A stretch of DNA of 64,000 bases from a bacterium (GTDB lineage: Bacteria > Zhuqueibacterota > Zhuqueibacteria > Residuimicrobiales > Krinioviventaceae). The notes beneath the pieces were generated by a model. The model made no database searches, was not told the origin of the DNA, and saw only the letters and a list, made by a program, of their open reading frames with translations. The stretch is from the NCBI GenBank assembly GCA_963693055.1, contig OY843751.1, positions 3,008,001 through 3,072,000 on the forward strand. Reading direction: 5' to 3'. Below, in pieces: positions 46,701 through 63,906 of the stretch (positions are counted from its first letter, which is position 1; each line of letters begins with the position of its first letter). A program made the position numbers and the translations under genes.

Positions 46701-46786
46701 ACAATTCAATCATTCGGGAATACCCCAATCAAACGGAATATCAGGAATACGCAAAGAACAGGTTGCAGCAATTGGCAGGGAAATAA
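43778..46786 (+). CDS. Large exported TPR protein (CpoB/BamD-like repeats, 1002 aa)
   Basis: Signal peptide then continuous A.Y..G..Y.....Y..A...F..L...YP.S repeats. Confidence 0.85.
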   Translation: MIKKLFLFLILFNSVYLFAQTTGSQADNDFYVAKGMYNDQLYDLAASQFREFLSKHGDNSLAEEAQFLLGECYYQSGDYSRAVTEYKKLLSDYPAIGFRDKAYYRIGETMVNSGQYEEGIKAFQIFLSQYPKSTLLTDAYYWYAEALYHTGNNTKALEYYARVYNMDKSGPLADYSFYSAAFIYEEMKKWDQALKAYQLLLKNHPSSPLVPQTTYRMGLVYFGKSEYDTSIKILNKAIKNYPQNDMRFEAQYFIGESYFKLEQYVKALEAYNLVAVVPDNSYADDAHYSMGWAYFKINQFENAALSFSQAAEISNSKGIISSSWFQAGRNRLKLGQTDQASQLFKRVILNHPDSKDAPNAMYELGSIDFDAKQIAGAKQYFQDIVDKYPDSSIAGQASLMIGECYLLDNDPETALKAFQTTETSYQSAFIQANALFKMGKLYYNTGDYSKALEYFNKVNDKYSNQLVHSESMFWFAETLFKTNDFKQALAAYDKFIKYYPNSPKLAEAWYGLGYAAIKTDNFQQAENAFKTANKLADNPSLKIDALLRMGDAIFNTKEYIRAITYYEKALNTDASHSQKAEANFQIGYCYYRNTNFHVAKKSFTTVTQEFGDTQYAAEAQYMIGRCSFRTNDFPEAIAEFNSLLSKYPKSSFADDATYAIGDCYYNQGDYDNAIQQYRKLLDTFPKSEYVSDAVNGVQWSMMQKGESDDAMNMVDDLLPKIDDPNVAAKVLIRKAEFAENMQQYDQAIAQYQLVLRDYPTSEAAKSMYYHIGKVYNKFKDPETAVTTLQKQWVQFPDTKAAAEALLLAALIHQRQGNHDAAIETFDKFIGNFPDHDKLAEANYLAGNSWYSKNNMEMAIKYYQNAITINNNARTTNQANIGLARIYIKTGKTEPAESILHSLTSQTTIDADLAAEAHYLIGEVYKAREEYQNAVVAFLKIKYIFTTETDWVVRGIYQAALCNEELKKYDESRRLYNSIIREYPNQTEYQEYAKNRLQQLAGK

Positions 46787-48471
46787 TGAAAACGAAAATA
46801 CTTTTATCCTTATTATTAATCGTTCCGGGGTTGCTGTTTGCTCAAAAAGTGGTTGCTCCCCCCTCTCGTATTACATTGCCATCGGATACGACACGTGTGG
46901 TACCGTCTTCATCCAAGGTTAACAGTCAAGATTCAACCTTGACTGTTCCCGAAGTACTTATTTATGGAAAAGATAAAACCACCAGAAATGTTAATGATAA
47001 AATCGATTTTAACCGGGAAACGCCAACGCTTTACAAACCTCAGCTTGAGCATGATCCTGTTAACAATATGATTACAAGTACACAAAACAAGCCTGAATAT
47101 GAAAGAACCTCAAATACAATGCAGCGTATGTCTTGGGCTGACTTGACAGGTGGTGGCTTTTCAACAGTAATTGCAAATGCCGGTTACTGGCAACGTATCA
47201 AAAAAGGGGATTTCAGAGTCAATGGAAATATTGATCGCAGCAGCGGTCAATATGATAACAGTGATTACACAATGGCAGGTCTTTCTGGTAATTTACATTA
47301 TATCTTCAACAAATCAAAAACTACTTCGTTCGCGGAATTGAATTCAAAAGATTTGGGTATGTTTAACTATCTTGGCAAACCACATATAAAACGCAACATC
47401 ACCAACCTGTATGCCGGTACAGAATGGTATTTAAACGTTAGTAAACTAGCGGACAGCAAGATTGGTTTTTATTTCAACAATTTATCAATAACAGATGATT
47501 CCAGCGCAACCGTTAATACCAGAGATCAGTTTACCTATAAACTATTCGGTGAATATAATCAACAATTTAAATATGCCATGGTCAAAGGTTTTGGTAATTT
47601 TGAAAGAGATTCTGATGATCTGGATAGAGTAAGCAATCATTCACATTTTGGCGAGTTAGGAGCAGAATTCAGTGGAAATCCTATAAGCACAGTAATGTTG
47701 TCAGCAGGATTAAAATACCAGTCTTTTAACTCTAACTTTTTAACATCTATTGACAAGGCTGCCCCCTTTGCCAAAGTTAATTTAATGCCGGTTAAAAACA
47801 TGGGCGTTACGTTACTGTACCAGAGTGGATTAGAATATACTCCTTTTACTGAATGGCTTTCTCAAAATCCATATGTGGTTTCCGGAATTGCAAGTACAGC
47901 CAATGAATTGAAATATAGATTACAATTTGATGTACAATATGAGCCCAAAGAAGGAATGCATCTGTTCTCAACCATTGATTATAAAGGATATGATCAATAT
48001 ATTTACTGGAACAGTCCCGATACTACAATGAATCCCATATCATTGAATAATCTGAACGATATGGATTTGCTATCTTTTAGTTTGGGTGGAAAATTTAATC
48101 TTTCTGAACGTTCAAGATTACAAATTGGGTTTACGAAATATCTGCCCAGTCTGAACGATACTACCGGATTTGTTCATAAAAATGTACCCTATATACCTGA
48201 ATATATGGTTCCTGTTAAGCTTATAATTGAACCTCTGAAAGGTACAACTATTTCTGTTGATGCTGAAATAATAGGTAAAAAATATATTGCTTCCAATCTG
48301 GATGAAACATTATCCGGTTATACTGTGTTTAATATTTCCGTGCAGCAATCATTTGGAAAAATATCTGCACATGTTAAATTACAAAATCTATTTGATTCTG
48401 AATTTAGTTATTGGTATAATTATCCACAAAAAGGTGTTCATTTGTTGGCAGGTATTAGCGCCAGATTCTAA
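46786..48471 (+). CDS. TonB-dependent-receptor-like outer membrane barrel (short N-terminal region)
   Basis: Signal peptide, TonB-box-like VPEVLIYG, TBDT C-terminal signature LQNLFD..F..W..YP..G.....GISARF. Confidence 0.7.
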   Translation: MKTKILLSLLLIVPGLLFAQKVVAPPSRITLPSDTTRVVPSSSKVNSQDSTLTVPEVLIYGKDKTTRNVNDKIDFNRETPTLYKPQLEHDPVNNMITSTQNKPEYERTSNTMQRMSWADLTGGGFSTVIANAGYWQRIKKGDFRVNGNIDRSSGQYDNSDYTMAGLSGNLHYIFNKSKTTSFAELNSKDLGMFNYLGKPHIKRNITNLYAGTEWYLNVSKLADSKIGFYFNNLSITDDSSATVNTRDQFTYKLFGEYNQQFKYAMVKGFGNFERDSDDLDRVSNHSHFGELGAEFSGNPISTVMLSAGLKYQSFNSNFLTSIDKAAPFAKVNLMPVKNMGVTLLYQSGLEYTPFTEWLSQNPYVVSGIASTANELKYRLQFDVQYEPKEGMHLFSTIDYKGYDQYIYWNSPDTTMNPISLNNLNDMDLLSFSLGGKFNLSERSRLQIGFTKYLPSLNDTTGFVHKNVPYIPEYMVPVKLIIEPLKGTTISVDAEIIGKKYIASNLDETLSGYTVFNISVQQSFGKISAHVKLQNLFDSEFSYWYNYPQKGVHLLAGISARF

Positions 48472-48497
48472 ACAAACAGAAACAAGGAGTCACAATA

Positions 48498-49139
48498 ATG
48501 TCCATGATTGAAATCATCCTCAAGGGCGGTGTAATGATGATCCCCCTGGCCCTTTGCTCGGTAGTTGCACTTGCAATATTGATTGAACGGCTGGTATCTT
48601 TGAGAAAAATACAAATCAATGCCCGTACGTTTGTATTACAAGTCAAAAATCTGCTTCTTAGAAACCGAATTGATGAAGCAGTAGTTATGTGCAAAGAAAC
48701 ACCAGGCCCCATTGCTAAAATCACGCATGCAGGTTTGATGAAGCATGACCGTCCGCGCGAAGAAATCAAAGATTCCATTGAAGGCGCAGCCAAAGTCCAA
48801 ATTTATCATCTTGAACGTAATTTGGGTGTATTGGGAACTATAGCAGCTATTGCACCCTTGATCGGATTTTTGGGTACGGTTACAGGTATGATCAAAGCTT
48901 TTATGCAAGTTCAAACACTTGGCGGTAGTGTAGATGCAAGTGTATTGGCTGGCGGTATATGGGAAGCATTAATTACTACAGCAGCTGGTCTTAGTGTTGG
49001 TATTCCCGCATTGATTTTTTACAACTGGTTATTAAGCAAAGTTGAACGTCACGTATTTGATATGCAGGAAAGCTCAAACGAACTTATGGATGTATTCCTG
49101 GAAAAGGAGATTCAGAATGAACATCGAAACATCGCGTAA
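48498..49139 (+). CDS. exbB: MotA/TolQ/ExbB proton channel
   Basis: GTIAAIAPLIGFLGTVTGMI, GIWEALITTAAGL. Confidence 0.9.
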   Translation: MSMIEIILKGGVMMIPLALCSVVALAILIERLVSLRKIQINARTFVLQVKNLLLRNRIDEAVVMCKETPGPIAKITHAGLMKHDRPREEIKDSIEGAAKVQIYHLERNLGVLGTIAAIAPLIGFLGTVTGMIKAFMQVQTLGGSVDASVLAGGIWEALITTAAGLSVGIPALIFYNWLLSKVERHVFDMQESSNELMDVFLEKEIQNEHRNIA

Positions 49140-49518
49140 ACGGATGGTAATGTTTTCCACCATCTCTTTGACCGATATTGTTCTGCTGTTACTAATCTTT
49201 TTTCTGCTGACTTCATCCTTTGTGGTTCAGCCGGGAATCAAAGTCAAATTGCCTAATGCAGCAAGTGGTCAGCAGGATGATTCGGATAAAATCTATGTCA
49301 CCATTACTTTGGACAACCAGATATTTTTGAACCAGAGACAGGTTTCCATCACCCAACTCGCGCAGCAAATGGGTCAAATGTTGAATGAAAATCCGCAAAA
49401 AATGGTTGTGATTAAAGCAGACAAAGACCTGTCACTTGAAAGAACAATCCGTATCGTAGATACTGCAAAGCTCGCCGGTGCTGAACGGTTTATGATTGCA
49501 ACTGAACCAGGATTATAA
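49117..49518 (+). CDS. exbD: ExbD/TolR biopolymer transport protein
   Basis: SLTDIVLLLLIFFLL with conserved Asp, KVKLP, IKADK; start MNIETS after AAGGAG. Confidence 0.9.
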   Translation: MNIETSRKRMVMFSTISLTDIVLLLLIFFLLTSSFVVQPGIKVKLPNAASGQQDDSDKIYVTITLDNQIFLNQRQVSITQLAQQMGQMLNENPQKMVVIKADKDLSLERTIRIVDTAKLAGAERFMIATEPGL

Positions 49519-49522
49519 TTTT

Positions 49523-50317
49523 ATGAAAAATCTTTTTCAAAATTTAAATCTTAATAAAGCAATGGGAATATCTGTAATCTTTCATTTATTCCTTGTGCTA
49601 TTGTTTTATCTGGTGCATACCCAGATGGTTATGCCATCACCGGAATATGCGGAAATTTCATTTATGTCAAGTTCCAGCAAGACAGTACCCGTATCTACCA
49701 GACAACAAGCCAGACCACAGCCACCTAAACCCGTTACAAAGAAACAGGAACCAGCTCCAGAACCTGTTGCAAAAGAAGAAAAAACTCAACCGATTAATCT
49801 CCCAAAATTCAGAAACAGGTTGGATGAAGAAACAGAAATGATTAAACGGGATTATGGCAAAATGGATGCTTCATCATCAGCACAAAAAATAACACCAGAC
49901 AATTCTGTTTATGATCAACGCGCGCAAGCAATACCGGACGATAATGACAGGAGCTACTACCCTACCCCTTCCACTACAGAGAACGACGCAAAACCTTCTC
50001 TGGTAGAAAGAGATGGAGTAAAGCCGGGTGACTCGAATCAACCCTTTACTATTGAGGGTGATGCAGCCAAACGAACGTTGGTTAAAAAAGTTATCCCACA
50101 ATATCCACCGGGGCTGCAAAAAGAAGCTACAGTCAAAATAAGAGTTTTTGTTTTACCCAATGGTGAAATCGGTCAAATGCTTCCCGTACTTAAAGGAGAT
50201 TCGGTATTGGAAGAGATTACTTTAAAATCGTTAAGAGAATGGAAATTCAATCCATTACCTCCGGGTGAAAACAAAACTGTGCAAGGTATTGTAACCTTTA
50301 GATATGAATTAAGATAA
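49523..50317 (+). CDS. tonB: TonB-family energy transducer
   Basis: TM helix with S..H motif (SVIFH), Pro/Lys-rich linker, PQYP...WKFNP C-terminal domain. Confidence 0.82.
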   Translation: MKNLFQNLNLNKAMGISVIFHLFLVLLFYLVHTQMVMPSPEYAEISFMSSSSKTVPVSTRQQARPQPPKPVTKKQEPAPEPVAKEEKTQPINLPKFRNRLDEETEMIKRDYGKMDASSSAQKITPDNSVYDQRAQAIPDDNDRSYYPTPSTTENDAKPSLVERDGVKPGDSNQPFTIEGDAAKRTLVKKVIPQYPPGLQKEATVKIRVFVLPNGEIGQMLPVLKGDSVLEEITLKSLREWKFNPLPPGENKTVQGIVTFRYELR

Positions 50318-50385: not shown

Positions 50386-50991
50386 GTGAAAGTGTTTTAT
50401 ACTCTACTGATCGTATTGTTATCATCAAGCTTTGTTTTAGCAGAAGAAACACTTTTCAGTGGAGATATTACTCATGGAGGTTATGGCGGCCCCAGTTTCA
50501 AAGTCGGTAAAGTATACAACAGTACCGCATTATGGGTTGGTGGAGGCGGCGGCTGGATCATTAACCATCAATTCGTTATTGGTGGCGCTGGATATGGAAT
50601 GGTTTCTGAACTCCGTGCCCCGTCAGTTGTTCAACCCGTAGACGGTACAGATCTTGAATATTTTATTGATCTGGGATATGGCGGTTTGCTGCTTCAATAT
50701 ATTGCTAATTCAGACAAACTCGTTCACTATACTATAGGAGCACTCGTTGGTGCTGGTGGTATCAGTTATTCTGACAGAAGATCTACAACTGAATATGAAA
50801 TAACAGATAGTGACGCCTTTATGGCTATTGAACCCGGGCTGGATGTTGTATTAAATATGACCCGTAATTTCAGACTTGCGTTTGGAGTTAAATACTTGTA
50901 TATATCTGGGTTAAATGGAATGCCGGGATTAGAAAGTTCAGATATCAGCAGTCCCCAATTTCATATAATGCTTAAATTCGGTACTTTTTAA
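50386..50991 (+). CDS. Hypothetical small outer membrane beta-barrel
   Basis: GTG start with AAGGAG; signal peptide; Gly-rich strands; ends LKFGTF. Confidence 0.65.
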   Translation: MKVFYTLLIVLLSSSFVLAEETLFSGDITHGGYGGPSFKVGKVYNSTALWVGGGGGWIINHQFVIGGAGYGMVSELRAPSVVQPVDGTDLEYFIDLGYGGLLLQYIANSDKLVHYTIGALVGAGGISYSDRRSTTEYEITDSDAFMAIEPGLDVVLNMTRNFRLAFGVKYLYISGLNGMPGLESSDISSPQFHIMLKFGTF

Positions 50992-51791
50992 AGATGGGTA
51001 CCTGCCCAAATAACAAAAACTGCCATAGGATATAATAAAACCTGAGCCAATAAAGTCCCTGCCACCCTGCTAATAATCATAAAAACAATACATTTCGAGT
51101 AATAATAAGGACTAGTCTTTCCTTCCAGAATATCATCCGTTAATAGTGAAAAGAATGGATCCACAAAAATCACCAAAATCACGGTAGCCATTCCAGTTAA
51201 CAATGGTGCAAAGCTCCCCGAAGTCAATCGTAATTCAGGATTTAAATACGAAGCCAGCATAGTAGCAAGAGACCCCGCAGTTAAAAACGCAACTGCAATA
51301 AAATTCAATCCAATGATTCTTTTAGGGATCGATTTAATATTCTTTAAATGTTTGAAATTATCTGAAGACGGAATTTTAAATTGTTCTTTAAATTGCCTTA
51401 TACCACTTTTGGTAAAACTGTGAACAATAACCCGGGGAATTGAGCGGTCAATATTAAAACGTTGTACAAACTTTATCAATATCCTCCTGAATGTAGGCAT
51501 TAACACAGCACCGGTAATTGTGCCCAACGTAGCAGCAAACAAAATATAATAGAAATAGTGGGTAGAGGGATTCAAAATTCCGGATCTAAGGTCTGTCTCA
51601 ACTTTTTTGGCAAGAATGGGCACCTGCAATGCATTGGCAGTACGAGACAATAATACCAGAATATTAAACAAGGAAAAAGAAACGGTCAGTCTGCCTGTTT
51701 GAATGCCAACCAGCCTGACTGAATACGCCAAAGTATTTATGGTGTGAATAATAAATGTAAAAATAAATACAAATATTATTGAATGTGACAT
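50988..51791 (-). CDS. amj: Lipid II flippase Amj (DUF2837)
   Basis: HTINTLAYSVRLVG, SLFNILVLLSRTAN, PELRLT, G.AT..L..FVDP..S..TD, SRVAGTLLAQ. Confidence 0.85.
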   Translation of the reverse strand: MSHSIIFVFIFTFIIHTINTLAYSVRLVGIQTGRLTVSFSLFNILVLLSRTANALQVPILAKKVETDLRSGILNPSTHYFYYILFAATLGTITGAVLMPTFRRILIKFVQRFNIDRSIPRVIVHSFTKSGIRQFKEQFKIPSSDNFKHLKNIKSIPKRIIGLNFIAVAFLTAGSLATMLASYLNPELRLTSGSFAPLLTGMATVILVIFVDPFFSLLTDDILEGKTSPYYYSKCIVFMIISRVAGTLLAQVLLYPMAVFVIWAGTHL

Positions 51792-51792
51792 T

Positions 51793-52548
51793 TTAAAAAC
51801 TTGTAGAAAGGTTCAAACTAAACCTGGGATCATTATTAACTGAATCAATTTGAAAATTCATATCCATAACAGACTGATCGATATTCTTATTATGCTTGTA
51901 AACAGACCAAACCGCATCAATCGCACTTACCACATGATTTGCCAAAATTGCGCCAATAACAAAAGTTGCTCGGTTATCTGCACGATCAGCAGAAATTCTC
52001 AACTGTTCATAATTATGCTGATAAGTAGCATTTTCCCAATCCCAGTACATACCTTCTACATCATAATAGTATTCAGGGAGATTGCGGTCTCTCAACTTTG
52101 CAGCATTATATTCATTAATATTGTCATAATTGCCCAGATCAACAAAATATGACTCATCTTTATTAGAAAGATCAACACCAGCATAAGAAGCAGCATATGT
52201 CTTGTATTCATCCTTGCGCCATTCACGAAAAGTAACCAAACCGGAATAAGCCAGCCACAAAGTAACTTCAGAAGCAAAAAAGTATTGTGCTTTTTTTGTG
52301 TTGCCGGTATAACGTTCACCTAAACCGGGAAGAATCATAGACATTAAAAATGCTTTCCCCTTATTCTTGGGAACCATAGAATTAACAGAAACATCTTTGT
52401 CCATTTTTACCTGGGGTGTACCCTGGGCTAAAAGCAAATCTTTATTCAAAAACAAATCATGAGACAAAGATCCTGTCTGGGCTTGAATCGTCGTTACAGT
52501 TGTTAAAAAAATTAGTATTGCTAACAATGCTTGTTTCATATAATTCAC
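51793..52548 (-). CDS. Hypothetical membrane protein (DUF5683-like), paralog B
   Basis: KAFLMSMILPGLGERYTG; NHVVSAIDA; C-terminal Phe. Confidence 0.6.
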   Translation of the reverse strand: MNYMKQALLAILIFLTTVTTIQAQTGSLSHDLFLNKDLLLAQGTPQVKMDKDVSVNSMVPKNKGKAFLMSMILPGLGERYTGNTKKAQYFFASEVTLWLAYSGLVTFREWRKDEYKTYAASYAGVDLSNKDESYFVDLGNYDNINEYNAAKLRDRNLPEYYYDVEGMYWDWENATYQHNYEQLRISADRADNRATFVIGAILANHVVSAIDAVWSVYKHNKNIDQSVMDMNFQIDSVNNDPRFSLNLSTSF

Positions 52549-53369
52549 CAGTTCATTCGTAAGGTTAAAGCTGTGTATTGTTTGTTATTATAATATCTGG
52601 GTTCTAAACGGAGTGCAGTTTGAACTTTATTATTGTGTATTTTGGTACTCCAGGCAGCTTCAAAAGCACTTATAATGTGATTAAATACGGCAATAGTTAC
52701 ACCTGTAGTGGCACGTTTAAAAGCCTGATTGCTGGCATCTCGGCGATCTTCATAATGCAGCCGATTATCTGAAATGTATTTATTGTGGGTCATTTCACTT
52801 ACATCCATATTGATATTATAGCTGGGATCAGAACGAAAATCATCCCATCCCCAGTTGAATTGATAATATTTGCCAATCATTTCATAATACTGTTGGTCTT
52901 TTTCAACATGCAAACCATGGCTGAATGCTGATTGTTCCCAATTACGTAAAGCGTCCAAATCATTGGATGGTAAACCGGATTGAACAGAAATCCAATTCCA
53001 GTATTCATCTTCACTCCAATGTGTGTCAGCATAATCCTGAAATTCGTTTTCTATATCGGTTCCTTCCGCATCATTTACAAAATACATAGCCCACGATGCA
53101 GCTTCTACTGTTAAAAAGCCCAAGGCTTTTTTCCACGATCCATTATAATATTGGCCGGCACCGGGTATTACCAAAGAATAGAATAATGCTTTTTTAACAG
53201 ATTTCACATCATTATTTTGAACAATTGCAGCTGACTGGGATCCGGCCTCTACATCATTCATTACAATAAGGGGTGCAGTTGTGTTTTGCAGATATTCCTG
53301 CCAATCAGTCTGTTGGGCAAAAACAGATACAGCAAACATTAAACATAGTAGTAATATTTTTGCTTTCAC
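52545..53369 (-). CDS. Hypothetical membrane protein (DUF5683-like), paralog A
   Basis: KALFYSLVIPGAGQYYNG; QQYYEMIGKY; NHIISAFEA; C-terminal Trp; GTG start after GGAG. Confidence 0.6.
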   Translation of the reverse strand: MKAKILLLCLMFAVSVFAQQTDWQEYLQNTTAPLIVMNDVEAGSQSAAIVQNNDVKSVKKALFYSLVIPGAGQYYNGSWKKALGFLTVEAASWAMYFVNDAEGTDIENEFQDYADTHWSEDEYWNWISVQSGLPSNDLDALRNWEQSAFSHGLHVEKDQQYYEMIGKYYQFNWGWDDFRSDPSYNINMDVSEMTHNKYISDNRLHYEDRRDASNQAFKRATTGVTIAVFNHIISAFEAAWSTKIHNNKVQTALRLEPRYYNNKQYTALTLRMNW

Positions 53370-53388
53370 TTTAAACTCCGTATTGGAT

Positions 53389-56300
53389 TTAATCCTGAAA
53401 ATCAAACAACAAACTTATATAGTGACGCCATTCATTACCATAGGTATAACCTTCGTGCTCAAATTCGTCGAGAGAATATGCGCTTGAAAATTCAAATGCT
53501 GTAGGGAATCCATAAAACGAGAATCCTGCAAAACGAAGATTAACTCCGGCGTCTTTTTTAAAATTATCTAACTTGATCTCATCTGAATCAAATGCATTAC
53601 CATAATCAACAAACGCACCCAAATAAAGATTGTTTGTAGTTATGTGCAAAATTCTTTTCTGGAAATTTTTAAAAATAGGAAATCGATAGGTAAAACGTCC
53701 CACCAAAAGTTTTCTTCCCTCTATACTGTAAAACGGATACCCTCTTAAACCTGGCAAACCACCGGCAAAAAAGTTGAAAAAACTATCTACCGGACGATCA
53801 ATCCAGCCGCCTATAAGATTTACATCAAGAGCATGATTACGGGTAAAGGGAATTCCATAGTACTGGTGCATATTCAACTGCACCCGGCTGTAATTAAATT
53901 TCGTATAGACTTCCTGAGGTGTTCCATATTCATTATCTGTGGCAAAATCATCAAAAAAATCATTCATCTCATAGGTGTACTGGATATCTAGTTTCATTCC
54001 AGAGGTTGGATTAATTGAAGAATTTAAACTGGGTGCTATCCAATCTGCATCCCATTGTACACCAAAATGATTACCTACAAAATATGTATTGTTGGGTGAA
54101 ACCCATTTCACATTTTGAAAAAAGAAATCTTTGATCTTGGATGTATAACGCTGATGGCTATACCAGGCTCTTACACCCAGATCCTTTGTAACATGAAAAC
54201 GTGCACCAATATCAGCTTCCAATATATTGAACTGAATATCCACAGGTGCTTTTTCGGGATAATCTTCAATTACATCAATTGAACGCTTGATATTGCGAGT
54301 AAAAGCGTATAATTCTAAAAAGATAACAGGTGGTAAATGACGATATTCAAAAATGGCAAAAGCATCTAAATCCATTCGATGGTTCATAGCTACTCCACCG
54401 AGAATGGAATATCTTTCCAATATATCACTTGCGTAAAAATAGGTGCCCAGCTTGACTTTATTAGAGTCAACCATAACTCTGGGTAAAACCATCATTTGAC
54501 CATAATCCATGGAATAGGGTTCTGCTTTTACATCCGGTAACTTTGTATCATCATAATGTCTGGCTTGAGCAAATCGGTCACTCTTGAACAAATTGTCCAG
54601 CTCCGGTGCAATATCATAAGCAGCAGGATAAACAAGTTTAGAAGCATCAATGGGTTGAATATCTTCAATGACAGCAATTTTATAACCGTTATATTCAAAG
54701 TGAGAATATACAAGTTTATTATCCTGAGAAACTGACGGCATAAAGGCACCGCCAATAACATTGGTAACCGGTTCTGGTTGTGCACCATCAGTTTTTACTC
54801 TGTAAATATTGTGTATGCCTGAACGGTCCCATGCAAAGTAAATATAATCACCATTAGGTCCATAAACCGGATCACGCGCGTCACCATATTCAGTAACAAC
54901 ATTATTAATTTTCTTTGACTCAATATTTACCGTTTTAATATCACGTCCATGATGGCGTGATTGAGAAAATACAATATTTTTGCTATCCGGTGAAAAACGT
55001 GGAGAGTAAACGCCTTCACCTTGCGTAAAATTTGTTAGTTCTGTAAAATTTTTCGCATATTTATCCAGCATCATGATATTATCTGTACCATCTTTTTGAA
55101 CGATACAGACAATATGCTCACCATCGGGTGACCAATCCGGATCGATGGAACGAAGACTGGAAGTTAATTTTTTCTCTTTTTTGGTAACAAAGTCATAGAC
55201 ATATAAATCAAAGAAATGTGACATATCCTCAACACGATGTCTTTTTTGATACAAGAGTTTTTTACCATCAGCTGACCAGGCAACGCTTCCATTGATACCG
55301 CCTTTGATAAACTGAGATTTATCAGTTTCCACATCATAAACAAACAACGAAGTCAAAGAAAGATAGTCAGAAGTTTTACTTCCACAATATGCAATTTTTT
55401 TACCGTCAGGAGACCATACAGGTGAAATATTGCCAATGCCTTCATCAATAAGTAATTTACCAGTTACCTGATTTGCTTTAACTGTTTCTAATCTTTTTGC
55501 ATAATAGGTATTCAAATGCTCTTTCCACTCATCATAGAATGTATAGGCATCTTTACCGGTAACATTCTTGATTGCACCATTCACGGAAAAGTTGAATTTC
55601 TTTTTCAAATCCTGAGTAATGGTTTTAAGGGATTCTTCACCATAGTTATGGGCAATATAACGGGTTAGTGCGTATCCCGCATTATAGGTCCGTTCGTTAC
55701 CCAGACTATTTTTACCAAAAACACCCATTTCATCAAAACTATGCAGCTCGTCATTTACAACTGCTGTACGAATAAGCATATCGCGATGTGTGTCCCAGCG
55801 ATCATAATCCAGACCGGAAATCATGTATTGGGCCATTCCTTCGGCCAACCACATTGGCACAATAGTCATAGGAATTGCATAAGATGCAATCTGGTTCGGA
55901 TAACCATACAATACATCGGGACGTTTTTCCTGCTCATAACCGATCCATTGTAAATACAATGCCGGCACGCGTCTGGCCAGTTTGCGAGACGCACCCAAAG
56001 AGATCATATGGCTAAACTCGTGGGTAACAACATTACGAAGCCAGTTGTGGGTTCCTCGCAGAATAAATGTCATCTGCGGTGCCCAGATTTCTACCTTGTT
56101 ATCATAATAATAAGCAGCACCATTTGAATTGTCATCAAAATCTTTAATAATAAAATGAATTTTACCATCAGGACGATAATCATACAAATCGGTGACAGGT
56201 TTATAAATGTCCTCTCCTATTTGCATAACAACACGAGCTGTCCGCTCAGCACCTTCATGGAAATGGACTTTGAAATGTTCCGATTCTATGGTATACCAGT

Positions 56301-56391
56301 CAAGTTCAGGATGTGTATAGTTGAATTCCTGGGCAAATATCTGGATGTTTAAAAATATAAATAATAAAAAGTATATCCGTTTCATTAGCAT
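53389..56391 (-). CDS. Gluzincin (peptidase MA-like) + PD40/TolB beta-propeller + Omp85-like barrel fusion
   Basis: HEFSH and WLAEG; WSPDG/FSPD PD40 repeats; FAGGLPGLRGYP resembling the Omp85 loop-6 motif. Confidence 0.72.
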   Translation of the reverse strand: MLMKRIYFLLFIFLNIQIFAQEFNYTHPELDWYTIESEHFKVHFHEGAERTARVVMQIGEDIYKPVTDLYDYRPDGKIHFIIKDFDDNSNGAAYYYDNKVEIWAPQMTFILRGTHNWLRNVVTHEFSHMISLGASRKLARRVPALYLQWIGYEQEKRPDVLYGYPNQIASYAIPMTIVPMWLAEGMAQYMISGLDYDRWDTHRDMLIRTAVVNDELHSFDEMGVFGKNSLGNERTYNAGYALTRYIAHNYGEESLKTITQDLKKKFNFSVNGAIKNVTGKDAYTFYDEWKEHLNTYYAKRLETVKANQVTGKLLIDEGIGNISPVWSPDGKKIAYCGSKTSDYLSLTSLFVYDVETDKSQFIKGGINGSVAWSADGKKLLYQKRHRVEDMSHFFDLYVYDFVTKKEKKLTSSLRSIDPDWSPDGEHIVCIVQKDGTDNIMMLDKYAKNFTELTNFTQGEGVYSPRFSPDSKNIVFSQSRHHGRDIKTVNIESKKINNVVTEYGDARDPVYGPNGDYIYFAWDRSGIHNIYRVKTDGAQPEPVTNVIGGAFMPSVSQDNKLVYSHFEYNGYKIAVIEDIQPIDASKLVYPAAYDIAPELDNLFKSDRFAQARHYDDTKLPDVKAEPYSMDYGQMMVLPRVMVDSNKVKLGTYFYASDILERYSILGGVAMNHRMDLDAFAIFEYRHLPPVIFLELYAFTRNIKRSIDVIEDYPEKAPVDIQFNILEADIGARFHVTKDLGVRAWYSHQRYTSKIKDFFFQNVKWVSPNNTYFVGNHFGVQWDADWIAPSLNSSINPTSGMKLDIQYTYEMNDFFDDFATDNEYGTPQEVYTKFNYSRVQLNMHQYYGIPFTRNHALDVNLIGGWIDRPVDSFFNFFAGGLPGLRGYPFYSIEGRKLLVGRFTYRFPIFKNFQKRILHITTNNLYLGAFVDYGNAFDSDEIKLDNFKKDAGVNLRFAGFSFYGFPTAFEFSSAYSLDEFEHEGYTYGNEWRHYISLLFDFQD

Positions 56392-56394
56392 TCT

Positions 56395-59289
56395 CTACTT
56401 AACCACTGCAATTTTTATAAACTGAACTGAAGTATCATTAGAGCCGCTGGCTTCAATACGTGCCAGGTATGCTCCACTTTGTACATTACCAACATCCCAA
56501 CGAACCTCATGGTCACCGGGTGTTATTCCGCTTCCGGTTAATTCTTCTATAAATTCACCGGCAATATCGTAAATGCGAATACTGACTGCACTAACCGACT
56601 GGTTCAATCGGTAACGTATATTACTAAACCCACTATCAGCCGGGTTAGGATAACAATAGGTTCCCTTTTCAGACAAAACCTTTGTAGATTCTGTCGACTG
56701 ATGAGTGTCACCTGCAACACTGAAAGAATTTTGATTATTTCCACCATAACTGGTCCAGTTCTTGTCAGATGCCAACGTTACATCAAGATTAAAAAGATAA
56801 AAATATCCATCCGTTGAAATCACTCCACATTCCTGTTTTCCATCACCATCCATATCAACCAGGATTGGAGATACATGTACAGCACTGCCTACAGAAAGAG
56901 GAAAACCTTCTACCATATCACCATTTGAATCATGCGCAGTTAACTGGCCTCCCTGTGTTGCGTTGATTACAATTGCACCATATTCATTTGTAATCGCAAT
57001 CAATGGACTTGTCTTTTCTCCAACCAAATTATCACTTGTTAAATGAGCAGGAAAATTGGAAACAGGAGAATTTTCATAATTATATCCACGAATATCAGAT
57101 TGATATTGTCTGAATAGTTCAGGCAATCCGTCATTATCCATATCACCAACAGCAGGAAGCGTAGATGCAAACATGGGTTCTGCCCCCACATTTCCATCAA
57201 AATCTGCCAAAGTGATAAAAAAGGATTGGGCTTCACTATTAATGTTTTCTGATTCCAGAATAGTTAAGTCAGTTGAATACAATGTATAATCACCATTTTG
57301 ATTTACAACACCCAAACCCGTACCGACCAAAGCTGCAAGTCCGGTAATTTGAGATTCTGTGGTGGAAATTTGTTCAACTATTTCCAAAGTGTCCGTTACA
57401 TTTAATTTTACCAGGCTGCCATCAGTACCTGCAATAAATACAAAAGTTGCATTATTTTCGGTTAAAACAACTGGACCTGCTGTAGGTAAACTGAAATTTA
57501 AATCTAAATTTGAAATTTCAGCTTCGTTACTATTATTAAAAGTAATTAAATATACTTTACCATGTTGGCTGACAAGTATCAACTCTGATGTACCATCATT
57601 ATCAAAATCTGTTATTGCTGGAGGTAAATTAAAATCATCAGTCAAATCCAGTAATTTCGTTTCAGAAGTATTGTTTAATCCATTACCTGCCTTGTTCCAA
57701 ATATGTAATTTTCCCAATTTGGTCAATCCGGCAATATAGGCTTGATTATTGACTGAAATGTTTTTCAAAGAACCGTTAAAAAATTCAGAACCCACATTTT
57801 TAGGAAATCCATCAGCCAGTCTGTCATTTTTGACAGAAAAAGTCATAACCGTATCATTATCACTAATGTTAAAAATATGAATATGACTTTTTGAACCATC
57901 ATTGGCATTGCTGTTTGGAATGGTATAGGGAGACAAAGCTACTGTGTCAGTTTGATTATTTACATATTTATGAGATTCATTATCTGCCCAATAGGGATCA
58001 TAATAGTCACCAGATTCAGCTCCCGAAGCAGCAGAAAACAAATCATAATAATATCCCAAATCCTGTGCACCGTCACTTTCAACCAGATCAACCCCGCGAT
58101 GTTCACGGTCGTTATTAATACTGTTAGTAGCAAGACTGTCATTGATAATATCTTCATCAATATGCCAGATCAGCAATCCCGATCCGGGTATTCCAAAATC
58201 ATATTCATCAATACTGGTTATAACACCCAGTTCACTATCAGCAGTTACATTGCCTTGAGTATCAAATTGGGCCCTGTTTCCGTTTTCATCACGGCCAAAT
58301 GTCACTTTATCTTTAACAGGATCCGTTTGGCGGTTTTCAACAAGAAAATATTCGGTAGAAGATATTGGAATTTTATAGATATGAGGTGCAGAAGCCGTTG
58401 TGGTTGTACCAATTTTCAAATCCGTACCATGAGTTACAACAACTGGCTCTTCCCAACCCAAATACACTTTCATCCAGGCACAGGGATACGCGGGAATTAA
58501 ACCCTGCATATTATATGATCCCTGGTCCATCAAACCCCAACGCCCAATACCTGCAGTACCATCAAGTGTGTTAAACATACTGGGCATACCCAGCTTGCTG
58601 CCCATGAGAAGGGTCATTGTACCCAAAAGACCCAGTTCATAACCTTCCTGACTTTGTGATTCTGGTAATATAATTCCTTCTTTAATAAAGATACCATCAC
58701 CAACATCAATCCCCTGATAAGTGCTGCTGCCCTCACCTAAAGTAGTTTGCAAGGTTTCAAAATCAAGATAAACAGATTGAATGTCATAAGGAGTTGCATC
58801 AAAATCAAAAGCAAAATCACTACCAATTCCAGCATGAAAAATAATAACACCATCATACTTGGAAAAGTCAGGATTATCACTCTCTATTGCCATGTTAATT
58901 ACATCTCGAAGCAATTCTGACCAGCGTTGATTTTTAAGCTCATCATCTTCCTGTCCACTGTAATAAACCATATTTTCAGACAAGGTATAGACTTGATTTT
59001 CACCTTCAGGCAAAACATCAGCTTCAATAACTAGCTGATCATTAGAGATTCTGGCAAAATAATTCTTTAATGCCAGCATTTGATGCTGAAAATAAGTACG
59101 ATTGTGAGGTGGTTTATCAATATTAAATTCACTCTCGTTACCCATATCAAACAAACCATCTCCGGTGGTGGTTGCAAGTTGATCTTGTTCAAATTGCGCA
59201 CGTAAAACCAAATAATTTAGATTACTCGATTGAGCAAATAATAATGGTGTCAGAAATATAAATAGAATTAATATGCTTCTTTTATACAT
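56395..59289 (-). CDS. M6 (immune inhibitor A)-like domain, degenerate active site, with FG-GAP repeats and C-terminal T9SS/FlgD-Ig sorting domain
   Basis: IIFHAG, GRWGLMDQGS, AWMKVYLGW, EYFLVENR, GLLIWHID; DFDNDG/DMDGDG repeats; YCYPNP...IRIYDIAG...WD...SGAY...KIAVVK. Confidence 0.75.
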   Translation of the reverse strand: MYKRSILILFIFLTPLLFAQSSNLNYLVLRAQFEQDQLATTTGDGLFDMGNESEFNIDKPPHNRTYFQHQMLALKNYFARISNDQLVIEADVLPEGENQVYTLSENMVYYSGQEDDELKNQRWSELLRDVINMAIESDNPDFSKYDGVIIFHAGIGSDFAFDFDATPYDIQSVYLDFETLQTTLGEGSSTYQGIDVGDGIFIKEGIILPESQSQEGYELGLLGTMTLLMGSKLGMPSMFNTLDGTAGIGRWGLMDQGSYNMQGLIPAYPCAWMKVYLGWEEPVVVTHGTDLKIGTTTTASAPHIYKIPISSTEYFLVENRQTDPVKDKVTFGRDENGNRAQFDTQGNVTADSELGVITSIDEYDFGIPGSGLLIWHIDEDIINDSLATNSINNDREHRGVDLVESDGAQDLGYYYDLFSAASGAESGDYYDPYWADNESHKYVNNQTDTVALSPYTIPNSNANDGSKSHIHIFNISDNDTVMTFSVKNDRLADGFPKNVGSEFFNGSLKNISVNNQAYIAGLTKLGKLHIWNKAGNGLNNTSETKLLDLTDDFNLPPAITDFDNDGTSELILVSQHGKVYLITFNNSNEAEISNLDLNFSLPTAGPVVLTENNATFVFIAGTDGSLVKLNVTDTLEIVEQISTTESQITGLAALVGTGLGVVNQNGDYTLYSTDLTILESENINSEAQSFFITLADFDGNVGAEPMFASTLPAVGDMDNDGLPELFRQYQSDIRGYNYENSPVSNFPAHLTSDNLVGEKTSPLIAITNEYGAIVINATQGGQLTAHDSNGDMVEGFPLSVGSAVHVSPILVDMDGDGKQECGVISTDGYFYLFNLDVTLASDKNWTSYGGNNQNSFSVAGDTHQSTESTKVLSEKGTYCYPNPADSGFSNIRYRLNQSVSAVSIRIYDIAGEFIEELTGSGITPGDHEVRWDVGNVQSGAYLARIEASGSNDTSVQFIKIAVVK

Positions 59290-59332
59290 AGCAGGTCCTA
59301 TGGTCTGTCATAATCAAGATACAATGTCATTT

Positions 59333-59374
59333 TAAAAAATTGTGCACAGTCTTTACTTACAAACTGTGCACAAG
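59333..59374 (-). terminator. Intrinsic terminator / stabilising hairpin after porV
   Basis: Minus strand: TTGTGCACAGT...ACTGTGCACAA followed by a T-run. Confidence 0.7.
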
Positions 59375-59388
59375 TCAAAATCTAATTT

Positions 59389-60489
59389 TTAGAATACAAA
59401 TGATAATGAAAAACGCATTGTATTAGAAAGTGGGTGCCCCTCACTTGCAGCTACATAACCAAAATCAAAACGATACATGTTGTACTGAATACCAGCACCA
59501 AAAGAGGTGAATTTTACTTTACCGGGTTCATCCCAATAGTAACCGGCACGTAAAGCAATCAGATCGCCATACCAGTACTCAAGTCCTGTACTCAAGATTC
59601 CATTAAAAATGGTGGTTTCGCCAACAAGCTCTTCCTTTTCATCATCACCCAGGTTTTCATATTCTTTTTCAACAACGGTCCAGGGAGAAGTAAATAATGC
59701 TTTATACCAGGCATCAGATGTACCATCAGCATTACGCTTAACCATCATGTGGTTCATATCACCAACCCAAGTCAATTTATTAAATTCATCATCAATGAAT
59801 TTGTAGGCAAAACCGACTTTTAAATTGGTTGGCAATGGATCAGCCTGGGCTGCATCAATATAGGTAATTTTGGGACCCATATTGGAAAGATTAGCACCAA
59901 AGCTCAATTTACGATGGAATGGTATTTTATAAATGGTTGATAAATCAAATGAAAAAGCATTTGCTTTACCATCGCCCTGTTCTGCACCAGCGCCAACACT
60001 GGAAAGATTTGAGCGAATGTAACGTAAACCAACGCCTACTGCCCAATCCTGGTTCAACTTTGTACCATAAGTAGTAGAAATTGCAAACTCGTAACTGCTA
60101 AATGTACCCAAAGGATCCGGCCCCGATTCATCAGTTATGGTTTGTTCACCAAGATTCAGATAAGTCAAATTAACACCAAAACTACCCAAACCCTCAACAG
60201 ATTGACGGTAAGCAGCAAAGTCGTAGTAAAGATCGGAACCAAATTGCGGCAGCCAATTGGCATGCATCAAGGTTAATTCACGTCCTTCAAGAAATCCCAA
60301 TCCCGCAGGGTTCCAGAATACTGCTGTTGCATCATCCGCTAATGCAACAAAGGCTTCACCCATACCAGCAGCTCTGGCTCCGGGAGAAATCTGCAAAAAC
60401 AACACTGCGGCTTCACTCACAGCATAAACCTGGCTGGCAGAAAACAGCACTGTTGAGATTGTAATCAAAGATAAAATCAGCTTTTTCAT
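59389..60489 (-). CDS. porV: PorV/PorQ-family outer membrane barrel (T9SS shuttle-like)
   Basis: AVLFLQISPGARAAGMGEA, AVFWNPAGL, HANWL, NMGPKI.Y, LPTNLK.G, HPLSNTMRFSL. Confidence 0.85.
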   Translation of the reverse strand: MKKLILSLITISTVLFSASQVYAVSEAAVLFLQISPGARAAGMGEAFVALADDATAVFWNPAGLGFLEGRELTLMHANWLPQFGSDLYYDFAAYRQSVEGLGSFGVNLTYLNLGEQTITDESGPDPLGTFSSYEFAISTTYGTKLNQDWAVGVGLRYIRSNLSSVGAGAEQGDGKANAFSFDLSTIYKIPFHRKLSFGANLSNMGPKITYIDAAQADPLPTNLKVGFAYKFIDDEFNKLTWVGDMNHMMVKRNADGTSDAWYKALFTSPWTVVEKEYENLGDDEKEELVGETTIFNGILSTGLEYWYGDLIALRAGYYWDEPGKVKFTSFGAGIQYNMYRFDFGYVAASEGHPLSNTMRFSLSFVF

Positions 60490-60517
60490 CAGAGTATACC
60501 TCCTGTTATCACATAGT

Positions 60518-60702
60518 AAAAAAAAATCCGAACCTAAAAGAGTTGCTCCCTAAAGAAGTTACCCTTTTACATTCGGATAATATATTCCATGGGCAAGCTT
60601 CATAGTTCGCAAACAGGTTTAAATAATAAAGAATTAAAGTTATTTCAAATACCAATCAGTTAATTTAATTAAACCTATAACGAACTTTAATAAGCTTACT
60701 CC
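60518..60702 (-). ncRNA. Putative structured leader or ncRNA upstream of porV (two long hairpins, second followed by a U-tract)
   Basis: Imperfect inverted repeats at 60591-60702 and 60526-60578; several mismatches become G-U pairs only on the minus strand. Confidence 0.5.
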
Positions 60703-60724
60703 TTGTTTGTGATTAAATCTAATA

Positions 60725-60753
60725 AAATTACGAATATAAAGCTATAGAGTCAA
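60725..60753 (-). promoter_or_regulatory. sigma70-like promoter for the porV leader
   Basis: TTGACT-N17-TAATTT on the minus strand. Confidence 0.6.
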
Positions 60754-60813: not shown

Positions 60814-62163
60814 TTACTGAAAAAGTTCCTCAATTGCGGAACAAAATTCATCCATTTCCTGTTTTGTGCGTTTTTCTGTAACTGCTATCAGTAAGGTATT
60901 ATCCATATTATCAAAATACGGTTTTAACTCAATACCTGCCAGAAATCCTTTATTACTCAACAACTCAATATACTCACTAACAGGTTTATTCGAGTTGATG
61001 CGTATCACAAATTCCTTAAAAAATGGACGATCAAAAACAGGTTCAATTCCAGGAATTGCGCACAATTTATCAAACAGATAATGGCTTTTTTGCAAACACA
61101 AATCAGCGATTTTTGGTAATCCATTTTTACCCATCAAAGCCATATATATTGTTGCAGCCAAAGCTACCAAGCCTTGATTGGTACAAATATTCGATGTTGC
61201 CTTTTCTCGTCGAATATGCTGTTCACGAGTTTGCAATGTTAAAACAAATCCGCTCTTGTTATTTTTATCAACGGTTTTCCCTACAATACGTCCGGGCATC
61301 AACCTAACAAGATTTTGTTTTGCGGCAAAAAGTCCCAAATATGGACCGCCAAAATTCAAGGCATTACCTAATGCCTGTCCTTCTCCAGTAGCAATATCCG
61401 CACCATAACTTGCAGGTGGCTCAAGAATTGCAAGAGAAATAGGATCATTGGAAGTCACAAAAAGTGCTCCTGCCTGATGTGTAATATCTGACAATTCCTG
61501 CATTTCTTCAAGGCTACCAAAAAAGTTGGGGTGTTGTACAATAACTGCTGCAACCTGATCATTAATCTGGTTTTTCAATGCAGATATATCAGTTATTCCG
61601 TTTTCTACAGGAACAAGAATAACATTTATCTCTCTTCCATGAGCATAAGTTTTAATAATATCTACATAATTGGGATTTAATGCACCCGATAACAAAACTG
61701 TATTTCGTTTCGTATAACCTGTTGAAAGCAGCATTGCTTCTGCCAAAGCTGATCCACCATCATATACAGATGCATTTGCTACATCCATACCGGTCAATTC
61801 ACATATCATGGTTTGGAATTCATATATTGTTTGTAACGTTCCCTGGCTTACTTCGGGTTGATACGGAGTATATGCGGTATAAAATTCCGAACGTGACAAG
61901 AGATGTTTTACAACAGAAGGAACATAATGATCATATGCACCTCCACCTAAAAAGCAAACATTTTCAAGACAATTACTATTTTTAGCTGACAGCTCAGACA
62001 TATGCTTCATAATCTGAAATTCTGATAAAGCTTCAGGTAATTTCAGTTCTCCTTTGAACTGCAACGCTTGTGGTATATTGTCTATTAATTCCGAAAAAGA
62101 GTCAACACCAATGCTATCAAGCATTTCCTTTTTATCTGATTTCGTATTCGGAATAAAACCCAT
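60814..62163 (-). CDS. gcvPA: Glycine dehydrogenase (decarboxylating) subunit 1
   Basis: FLGGGAYDH, EFYTAYTPYQPEVSQG, REQHIRREKATSNICTN. Confidence 0.95.
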   Translation of the reverse strand: MGFIPNTKSDKKEMLDSIGVDSFSELIDNIPQALQFKGELKLPEALSEFQIMKHMSELSAKNSNCLENVCFLGGGAYDHYVPSVVKHLLSRSEFYTAYTPYQPEVSQGTLQTIYEFQTMICELTGMDVANASVYDGGSALAEAMLLSTGYTKRNTVLLSGALNPNYVDIIKTYAHGREINVILVPVENGITDISALKNQINDQVAAVIVQHPNFFGSLEEMQELSDITHQAGALFVTSNDPISLAILEPPASYGADIATGEGQALGNALNFGGPYLGLFAAKQNLVRLMPGRIVGKTVDKNNKSGFVLTLQTREQHIRREKATSNICTNQGLVALAATIYMALMGKNGLPKIADLCLQKSHYLFDKLCAIPGIEPVFDRPFFKEFVIRINSNKPVSEYIELLSNKGFLAGIELKPYFDNMDNTLLIAVTEKRTKQEMDEFCSAIEELFQ

Positions 62164-62177
62164 AAGAAGCCTCAAAT

Positions 62178-62555
62178 TTAACTTATAACGTTTTTATAAT
62201 CATCTGCACTTAACAGACTGTCTAATTGACTGGCATCAGACAGTTCAATTTTAATCATCCAACCTTCGCCATAAGGATCTTTATTTACAGTTTCAGGTGC
62301 GTCTGTTAAAACATCATTAACCTCTTTAACCTTGCCAGAAAGGGGTGCAAAAAGATCAGAAACTGCTTTAACAGCCTCTACGGTACCAAAAGCATCCATT
62401 TGATTAACTTCTGTACCTACTTCAGGCAACTCTACAAAAACCAGGTCACCCAATTCACCCTGTGCATAATCAGTAATACCTACAGTAGCAATATTGCCGT
62501 CTACTGATACCCATTCATGTTCTTCAGTGTACTTAAATTCAGCCGGAATCTGCAT
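62178..62555 (-). CDS. gcvH: Glycine cleavage system H protein
   Basis: [17 protein letters not shown] (lipoyl Lys), DPYGEGW. Confidence 0.96.
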
Positions 62556-62565
62556 TTTGGCCTCC

Positions 62566-63906
62566 CTAAAATTTAAATGTTTCTAAAAATTTAGTATTAA
62601 AATTCCCACTACGAAAGTCTTTATCCATGAGAATTTTTTTATGTATAGGAATAGTAGTAGCTACACCTTCAATAATAAACTCGTCCAATGCTCTAAGCAT
62701 TCGAACTATTGCTTCTTCCCTGTCTTTTCCATGTGTAATTAATTTTGCCAAGAGAGAATCATAATAGGGTGGAATCTTGTATTGATCATATGCATGAGAA
62801 TCCACACGTACTCCATGACCTCCGGGAACATGAAAATTGGTTATAACTCCAGGTGAAGGACGAAAATCCTTAAAAGGATCTTCAGCATTTATCCGGCATT
62901 CAATAGCATGACCACGAAGCTTGTATGATTTCATGCGTTCATCCAGCTTTTCTCCAGCAGCAACCTTGATTTGTTCTTTAATCAAATCAATATCGTTAAC
63001 TTCTTCTGAAACCGGATGTTCAACTTGAATACGGGTATTCATTTCCATAAAATAAAAATTACCTTCATCGTCCATCAAAAACTCGATGGTACCGGCACTA
63101 TTATAATTCACTTCACTCGCACCCTTGGAAGCTGCCAAATTCATAGCATCACGAGTCTTTTGAGTTACTGCCGGTGAAGGTGATTCTTCAATCAATTTCT
63201 GATGTTTGCGCTGTATAGAACATTCACGTTCGCCCAGAGATATCACATTTCCAAAATTGTCACCAATAAGCTGGATCTCGATATGTCTGGGACTTTCAAA
63301 AAACTTTTCTATATATAAAGCAGGGTTATTAAAAGCAGAATTCGCCTCTGCACCGGCAGAACTAAATGCATTGCTCAAGTCTTCTTTTTTTCGAACAACT
63401 CTCATTCCTCTGCCACCGCCGCCGGCAGATGCTTTAACTATGATGGGGTAACCAATTTCTTCGGCAATTTTATACGCTTCATCGATGGTTTTAACAATAC
63501 CATCAGAACCTGGTATTACAGGAACACCTGCTTTTTTCATTGTATCTTTAGCAAAGGCCTTGTCTCCCATACGTGTAATCACCAAAGGATCGGGGCCAAT
63601 AAATTTTATGTTACAACTCTCACAGATTTCAGCAAAATGCGCACTTTCTGCTAAAAAACCATACCCCGGATGAATTGAATCCGCATTGGTTATTTCAGCA
63701 GCGCTGATAATTTGTGGAATATTTAAATAGCTTAAATGACTGGGACCAGGGCCAATACAAACAGCTTCATCTGCAAAATTCACATGAAGGCTGTCAGCGT
63801 CGGCTTCACTATAAACAGCAACAGATTGAATTCCTAGCTCTTTACAGGCTCTTATTATCCGTAATGCAATTTCGCCACGATTTGCAATGAGTATTTTTTT
63901 AAACAA
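62566..63906 (-). CDS. accC: Acetyl-CoA carboxylase biotin carboxylase
   Basis: [45 protein letters not shown]. Confidence 0.96.

Follow-up and report, generated by a model that had tools for sequence, protein, structure and literature searches.

The 64-kb stretch of DNA analyzed here (the window) belongs to a complete 6.5-Mb genome from KSB1, whose contig is labelled C1 below, and it carries a porV-led locus linked to the type IX system of protein secretion (T9SS). Five genes of this locus form a conserved cassette encoding PorV, the carrier of cargo with a C-terminal domain (CTD); an inactive M6-like protein (M6i); a gluzincin-propeller-Omp85 protein, here called WD40-Omp85; and two DUF5683 proteins, A and B. 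We propose that the cassette is an assembly-and-docking module of a T9SS variant lacking the GldKLMN motor, a reading whose probability we put at roughly 0.55. A tie between the cassette and T9SS is highly likely, and a genuine absence of a Gld-type motor from the system is probable. The cassette offers three unstudied conserved proteins with homologues in culturable groups; a Rhodothermales protein anchors one clade. A preliminary description of this DNA had placed it in a lineage outside Bacteroidia, as KSB1 is, and had listed six co-oriented genes with a promoter, a structured leader and a hairpin, all of which were recovered on the minus strand (Table 1), the last five genes being nearly contiguous with successive spacings of 3, -17, -4, and 1 bases.

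Within KSB1, 117 of 121 genomes were found to carry M6i, usually at one locus, a pattern resembling that of a machine part and unlike that of cargo. Gene order was compared at 40 M6i loci picked for long contigs across families. At 39 of these porV adjoins M6i, the exception having an insertion, while the Omp85 gene comes next after M6i at 38 of 38 loci and DUF5683 A is followed by B at 36 of 36 (33 by script and three boundary cases confirmed by reading). A second set of 80 overlapping KSB1 loci gave similar counts for porV (71/72), the Omp85 gene (69/70), and the DUF5683 pair (50/53, plus three boundary cases). The gene order given in the preliminary description is thus conserved in KSB1. 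The one gene there for which this does not hold is amj, which had been counted as part of the unit and is present in only 2 of 36 loci, both from the window's own family, and in 3 of 48 evaluable loci of the second set; amj is therefore a local addition or passenger outside the conserved cassette.

Beyond KSB1, profile matches to the Omp85 protein include sequences whose source is named as Marinimicrobia, Latescibacterota, Electryonea, or Rhodothermales (look-up of 30 proteins, with a taxon given for eight clusters). When metagenomes were scanned with the Rhodothermales homologue as the seed, 508 loci emerged, of which the best 80, some of them near-duplicates, were analyzed. In a FastTree tree, the full-length metagenome copies fell outside the KSB1/Marinimicrobia group, with a named anchor only in the Rhodothermales clade. 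At these loci M6i lies upstream of the Omp85 gene in 69 of 73, porV upstream of M6i in 51 of 51, and porU upstream of porV in 41 of 43, while 49 of 54 have one DUF5683 gene downstream (script counts of 65, 51, 40, and 47, to which 4, 0, 1, and 2 cases at open-reading-frame (ORF) boundaries were added by reading). One upstream gene scanned from the metagenome loci scored as PorU at 1023 bits. Where M6i is missing (four loci), the Omp85 gene and sprA stand back to back; three further loci have sprA a few genes downstream. Look-alike clusters of DUF5683 A came from Ignavibacteriota and Zixibacteria and those of DUF5683 B from Fidelibacterota. The Rhodothermales clade has an unassigned gene, about 220 aa in length, placed after the Omp85 gene and ahead of the lone DUF5683 gene.

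The T9SS genes of the complete genome were inventoried by profile search. The window porV scored 310.9 bits against NF033709 (cut-off 90) and 242.6 against NF033710, just below its cut-off of 250, and it is the best of 22 PorV-family genes over cut-off, the next scoring 206.7 bits. SprA is encoded by a 2104-aa ORF at C1:5668021-5674335 (TIGR04189, over cut-off) and is found in 119 of 121 KSB1 genomes. Two PorU genes pass the cut-off of 420 bits, with scores of 883 and 876, and three PorU-like genes of greater length fall below it. The CTD start motif occurs in 178 ORFs; 150 of 264 CTD candidates were scored and all passed the cut-off, giving at least 150 CTD proteins. The window itself is without sprA, porU, and porKLMN, as had been noted, with the over-cut-off sprA and porU matches sitting elsewhere and GldL, GldM, and GldN matching nowhere in the genome. 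The genome-wide core search and CTD count that the preliminary description had proposed thus returned a translocon, a sortase, and abundant cargo; its link to T9SS is supported, and the system appears non-canonical. A full canonical T9SS elsewhere in the genome, which that description held would refute its reading, is borne out for the translocon and sortase and not for the GldKLMN energy chain, which went undetected.

These results also bear on the pathway first suggested for this locus, a self-contained and simplified route of export and anchoring with translocation by the Omp85 fusion, CTD binding by PorV, and a lipid-linked glycan provided by Amj. The compact run of co-oriented genes fits such a route, and some Omp85-family proteins do translocate (PMC4104836, as excerpted). 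SprA and two PorU in the same genome, the rarity of amj, and an Omp85 model without POTRA whose barrel is only BamA-sized all argue the other way, and we regard the proposal as largely refuted and very improbable. Next to sprA, a two-gene LptF/LptG-like pair (labels from reading the sequence) stands back to back with it in 19 of 21 loci (C1:5668021-5677124 here), and in 12 of the 21 the gene after sprA encodes a conserved secreted protein about 300 aa long. Downstream of sprA, C1:5656090-5665402 encodes an unassigned 1103-aa secreted protein (seen in 6 of 21 loci), a 1607-aa PorU-like protein, and a PorV2-like protein.

The motor genes were searched for across KSB1. None of 121 genomes, this complete one among them, gave a GldM match; the counts were 0 of 61 for GldN and 0 of 31 for GldL, with no positive control matched by any of the three models. 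For GldK, the best score in this genome was 104 of 350 bits, with partial matches also seen in Bacillus and no positive control, and for PorP (TIGR03519) it was 22 of 90 bits, again with no positive control matched. The PorZ model PF21544 matched 1 of 26 genomes (E 1e-10), this genome not among them, likewise with no positive control. An attempt at a positive control for GldM, on a 388-kb Parabacteroides replicon with sprA, found no gldM. Beside sprA, no conserved motor candidate was seen in 21 loci, and ExbB/ExbD-like genes lay near sprA in 3 of the 21. The TPR-ExbB-ExbD-TonB operon of the window is kept in 5 of 41 loci and is a weak lead toward another energy source.

Current models hold GldKLMN essential for pulling cargo from SprA, and the undetected motor raises the question of what ejects cargo here. 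In Flavobacterium the energy-requiring step is the ejection of carrier-substrate complexes from SprA, for which the motor is needed (PMC10994853, PMC12635249, as excerpted). It is conceivable, and in our view unlikely, that the cassette replaces the missing motor, pulling or releasing PorV-cargo from SprA by a surface binding ratchet or by proteolytic release. Such a role would fill the very step that needs energy in Flavobacterium, in organisms with SprA, at least 150 CTD proteins, and no motor detected there or conserved beside sprA, and it would suit a cassette that follows porU/porV or sprA in several lineages. However, the five cassette proteins are without an inner-membrane anchor or an obvious energy source, and several ExbBD/TonB sets at unlinked loci could supply energy instead.

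Compared with the T9SS of Bacteroidota, the system shares SprA, PorV, PorU, and type A CTD cargo, and non-KSB1 loci place porU directly before porV. It differs in that GldL, GldM, GldN, GldK, PorP, and PorZ were undetected in searches that had no positive control, in its 22 PorV-family genes, and in M6i, WD40-Omp85, and DUF5683, none of which figures among the T9SS components that the excerpts of the cited papers name. The nearest precedent is Melioribacter and Ignavibacterium, for which only PorV, SprA, and Plug were reported (PMC11705866, as excerpted). Both cases combine PorV and SprA with a failure to find other T9SS proteins that were looked for; theirs is a remark on two genera, whereas the pattern here is phylum-wide and comes with PorU, at least 150 cargo proteins, the cassette, and the leader. 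Among top-ranked literature results, no paper dealt with the cassette, a KSB1 T9SS, the phylum-wide absence of the motor, or the porV leader, and each cassette protein family is already catalogued. The pattern bears on whether secretion or gliding came first. A broader scenario, which we hold to be speculative and somewhat unlikely, is that a full-scale T9SS operates without GldKLMN in KSB1 and in several of its sister lineages within FCB, with the cassette supplying the missing release or assembly function under control of a new RNA switch, the motor-free form being older and the gliding motor added later in Bacteroidia. Such an order would turn around what has been inferred in print, namely that T9SS arose at first as a component of the machinery for gliding (PMC12635249, as excerpted).

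M6i matches NF052323 over its full length at 558 bits (cut-off 600) and TIGR03296 at E 5.5e-18, and it carries a type A CTD by TIGR04183. The predicted model (pLDDT 87.8) comprises an M6 domain of InhA fold (16-490), a beta-propeller (490-838), and the CTD (875-964). The InhA-fold domain aligned with InhA2 4yu5 at Z 21.6 (root-mean-square deviation 3.8, 373 residues aligned), the propeller reached a best Z of 27, and Foldseek listings were dominated by propellers. All 41 aligned homologues and all 58 metagenome copies have other residues in place of the HExxHxxGxxD zinc motif, in agreement with the pseudo-protease suggested in the preliminary description; the genome also encodes two M6 paralogues with the motif intact, and in both it aligns to the altered position. 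Since the domain keeps many invariant residues despite this loss, conservation points to a retained binding role. NF052323, annotated as a T9SS-dependent M6-like inactivated metalloprotease, agrees with M6i in its full-length match and lost zinc motif; it differs in being an annotation model, with no study found on its function or its place in a cassette. M6i had no match among the plasmids searched. Two tandem M6 proteases with the zinc motif intact are encoded at C1:214952-220646.

In the predicted model of WD40-Omp85 (pLDDT 87.9), a gluzincin domain (25-305) is followed by a TolB-like propeller (308-575) and an Omp85 barrel (about 630-996), and no POTRA domain is present. Model comparison gave Z 27.4 with TolB and 21.9, 21.6, and 20.3 with BamA, the barrel being BamA-sized. 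By this modeled architecture, the protein belongs to the WD40-Omp85 subfamily, catalogued and likened to a BamA-BamB fusion by Heinz and Lithgow 2014 (PMC4104836, as excerpted). A TolB-like propeller replacing POTRA before the Omp85 barrel is common to both; the excerpt mentions no N-terminal gluzincin, T9SS link, or tested function, and its Metallo group carries PF00149 instead. The gluzincin HExxH motif and downstream Glu are intact in 39 of 39 KSB1 and 80 of 80 metagenome copies, and by analogy with Omp85 topology the protease is likely periplasmic, as the propeller probably is too.

DUF5683 A and B are paralogues (25% identical) of one layout, with a signal peptide, an SxxxPGxG helix, a soluble insert, an NHxxS helix, and a C-terminal beta-hairpin-like segment. 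This segment ends in an invariant Trp in A and in a mostly aromatic last residue across the pair, and we take it to resemble a beta-signal. Profile search found no solved relative, and the literature search found no paper about the family by title or abstract, a lipocone paper being without mention of it. A look-alike relationship to the Borrelia P13 porin (0.79) was unsupported by Pfam and was rejected.

The leader before porV opens with an invariant 5' motif and a long hairpin, P1 (arms at about 60686-60677 and 60611-60602), and ends in an intrinsic-terminator hairpin with a U-run at 60578-60518, about 30 nt before porV. Its fold is more stable than that of shuffled sequences (z -6.45, 0 of 200 shuffles as good), and of 90 distinct regions upstream of porV, 84 contain a hairpin plus U-run at a distance of 27-106 bases from the gene. 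Because the terminator is often too close to porV for a second promoter, the sequence suggests that porV expression likely depends on read-through. The leader alignment holds 46 of 54 leaders in the 140-205 nt range (69 of 82 fit the anchor pattern) and shows the invariant 5' motif, the P1 helix, and a terminator whose base is conserved in sequence. Pairing and covariation exceed those of 500 of 500 shuffles and all slid controls, with 9 of 21 pairs changed on both sides and 85.6% of cells paired compared to at most 53.6% in slid controls, a contrast inflated by a structure hand-drawn from the same sequences and by sequence relatedness.

A leader model, R1, matches 105 of 121 KSB1 genomes, training sequences included, and this genome once. 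Twenty off-locus matches were fetched: five were the main porV on other contigs, one lay at a contig end, and 14 were secondary copies, two of them weak matches. Ten of these precede porV-family, PorU-like, or CTD-protein operons and four precede other envelope genes. Eight copies stand before a lipoprotein-led operon with porV paralogues (paralogue seen in seven); single copies precede a PorU-like gene with a porV paralogue, a C25-like CTD protein gene, and an outer-membrane barrel gene; and three precede a nucleotide-sugar dehydrogenase gene, with wza/wzz-like genes seen at one. In this genome an operon at C1:6300086-6304664 encodes a lipoprotein, a 493-aa propeller-like protein, and two tandem PorV-family proteins; it has a second leader copy in other KSB1 genomes and none in this one.

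Attenuators and riboswitch expression platforms combine a 5' hairpin with an intrinsic terminator shortly before the start codon and segments that can pair in two ways. The leader shares this arrangement; its four helix arms have one 5-base word in common, making antiterminator pairings possible, and breaking its terminator costs about 8-14 kcal/mol. It differs from those known elements in matching no Rfam family and in that its switching is a prediction. The leader likely acts as an attenuator, an on/off switch, and may represent a new cis-regulatory RNA that serves secretion and envelope operons. A 6S RNA was rejected as its identity, as the sole RF00013 match of the genome lies elsewhere, at C1:2762068-2762248 on the minus strand, where it is itself a candidate 6S RNA at 36.4 bits, below the cut-off of 46.4. 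A leader peptide was rejected because frames and stops are not kept in the alignment (by inspection), as was a target of a NusG paralogue, the genome having one NusG-family gene. Outside KSB1, no leader match was found in 53 of the 80 metagenome loci, most of which start inside porU. The promoter before the leader scored below the pass level of a consensus scan, and in 54 of 69 loci a loosely defined promoter pattern stands before the leader (without shuffle control). After porV, the intergenic hairpin (59373-59340) is the longest of 11 terminator-like sites, a number close to the 8.1 expected by chance. It is loosely conserved: 32 of 39 loci have a hairpin of at most -10 kcal/mol between porV and the M6i gene, and 13 of the 39 show a U-tail as well (without shuffle control).

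If the cassette is an assembly-and-docking module, cargo would exit via SprA, carried by PorV through its CTD and cleaved and anchored by PorU as in Bacteroidia, since the known T9SS works in this way. PorZ is part of the Bacteroidota attachment complex PorQUVZ. M6i would be exported by its own CTD and likely stay on the surface as a permanent PorV/PorU partner, a binding scaffold in the place held by PorZ in Porphyromonas; a resident surface subunit is suggested by its occurrence at one near-universal locus, by the adjacent porU-porV, by its inactive site, and by PorZ going undetected. The Omp85 protein, given its fold, intact motif, and linkage, may insert, trim, or quality-control outer-membrane T9SS parts, most likely the co-encoded DUF5683 proteins. 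The leader would likely halt most transcripts before porV unless a trans factor blocks terminator formation.

Several results weigh against this proposal. The GldL, GldM, GldN, PorP, and PorZ models matched none of 14 control genomes, so a motor too divergent for these models may have escaped detection. The likeness of M6i to PorZ is that of a generic propeller only (TM 0.17). Most non-KSB1 loci have one DUF5683 gene instead of the pair, and five have none. Two alternative leader pairings of five pairs each are 94% and 86% paired, yet show no covariation. Finally, two further gluzincin-propeller-Omp85 paralogues with intact HExxH, at C1:4309579-4312467 and 5267175-5270369, lie away from T9SS core genes, indicating that this architecture is not T9SS-specific. 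The paralogues also favor a different view of the locus, as an old envelope operon of independent parts in which porV serves T9SS, M6i is an ordinary cargo protein or adhesin, and the Omp85 and DUF5683 proteins perform general outer-membrane assembly or quality control, all kept close by co-regulation. WD40-Omp85 being a catalogued, BamA-BamB-like subfamily (PMC4104836, as excerpted) fits that view, as do the terminator-like hairpin that splits porV from the rest and one KSB1 locus with DUF5683 directly after porV. A loose collection is hard to square, however, with an order kept across KSB1 and the Rhodothermales-side clades, where gaps between cassette genes are often below 50 bases, or with an Omp85 gene that sits beside sprA when outside the porV block, and we consider it an improbable account next to the assembly-and-docking module.

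Table 1 Features of the porV-led locus, in window positions
Feature	Positions	Strand	Evidence
Promoter, likely sigma-70 (TTGACT, 17 nt, TAATTT)	60725..60753	-	Sequence; kept in 4/4 aligned family sequences
Structured leader RNA, 186 nt	60518..60705	-	Fold, covariation, model R1
porV, main PorV orthologue (CTD carrier)	59389..60489	-	NF033709, NF033710, PF19572
Terminator-like hairpin between porV and M6i gene	59334..59373	-	13 pairs and T-run
M6i (inactive M6-like protein)	56395..59289	-	NF052323, TIGR04183
WD40-Omp85 protein (gluzincin-PD40-Omp85)	53389..56391	-	PD40; weak gluzincin and TamA matches; model
DUF5683 protein A	52545..53405	-	PF18935, 31.1 bits; alignment of homologues
DUF5683 protein B	51793..52548	-	PF18935 in 29/34 members; alignment of homologues
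amj (alternate lipid II flippase)	50988..51791	-	PF10997, E 2e-81

On the plus strand, a 201-aa ORF for a secreted, barrel-like protein (window 50386-50991) overlaps the end of amj by 4 bases; it had no Pfam or NCBIfam match and was found only here and in a genome of the same genus. Genes for a tetratricopeptide repeat (TPR) protein, a likely barrel of 561 aa, ExbB, ExbD, and TonB (window 43778-50317, plus strand) converge on the cassette. Upstream of the leader, accC-gcvH-gcvPA occupy window 60814-63906 on the minus strand, and gcvH lies less than 2.3 kb from porV in 24 of 40 loci; these genes are probably an ordinary neighbourhood.

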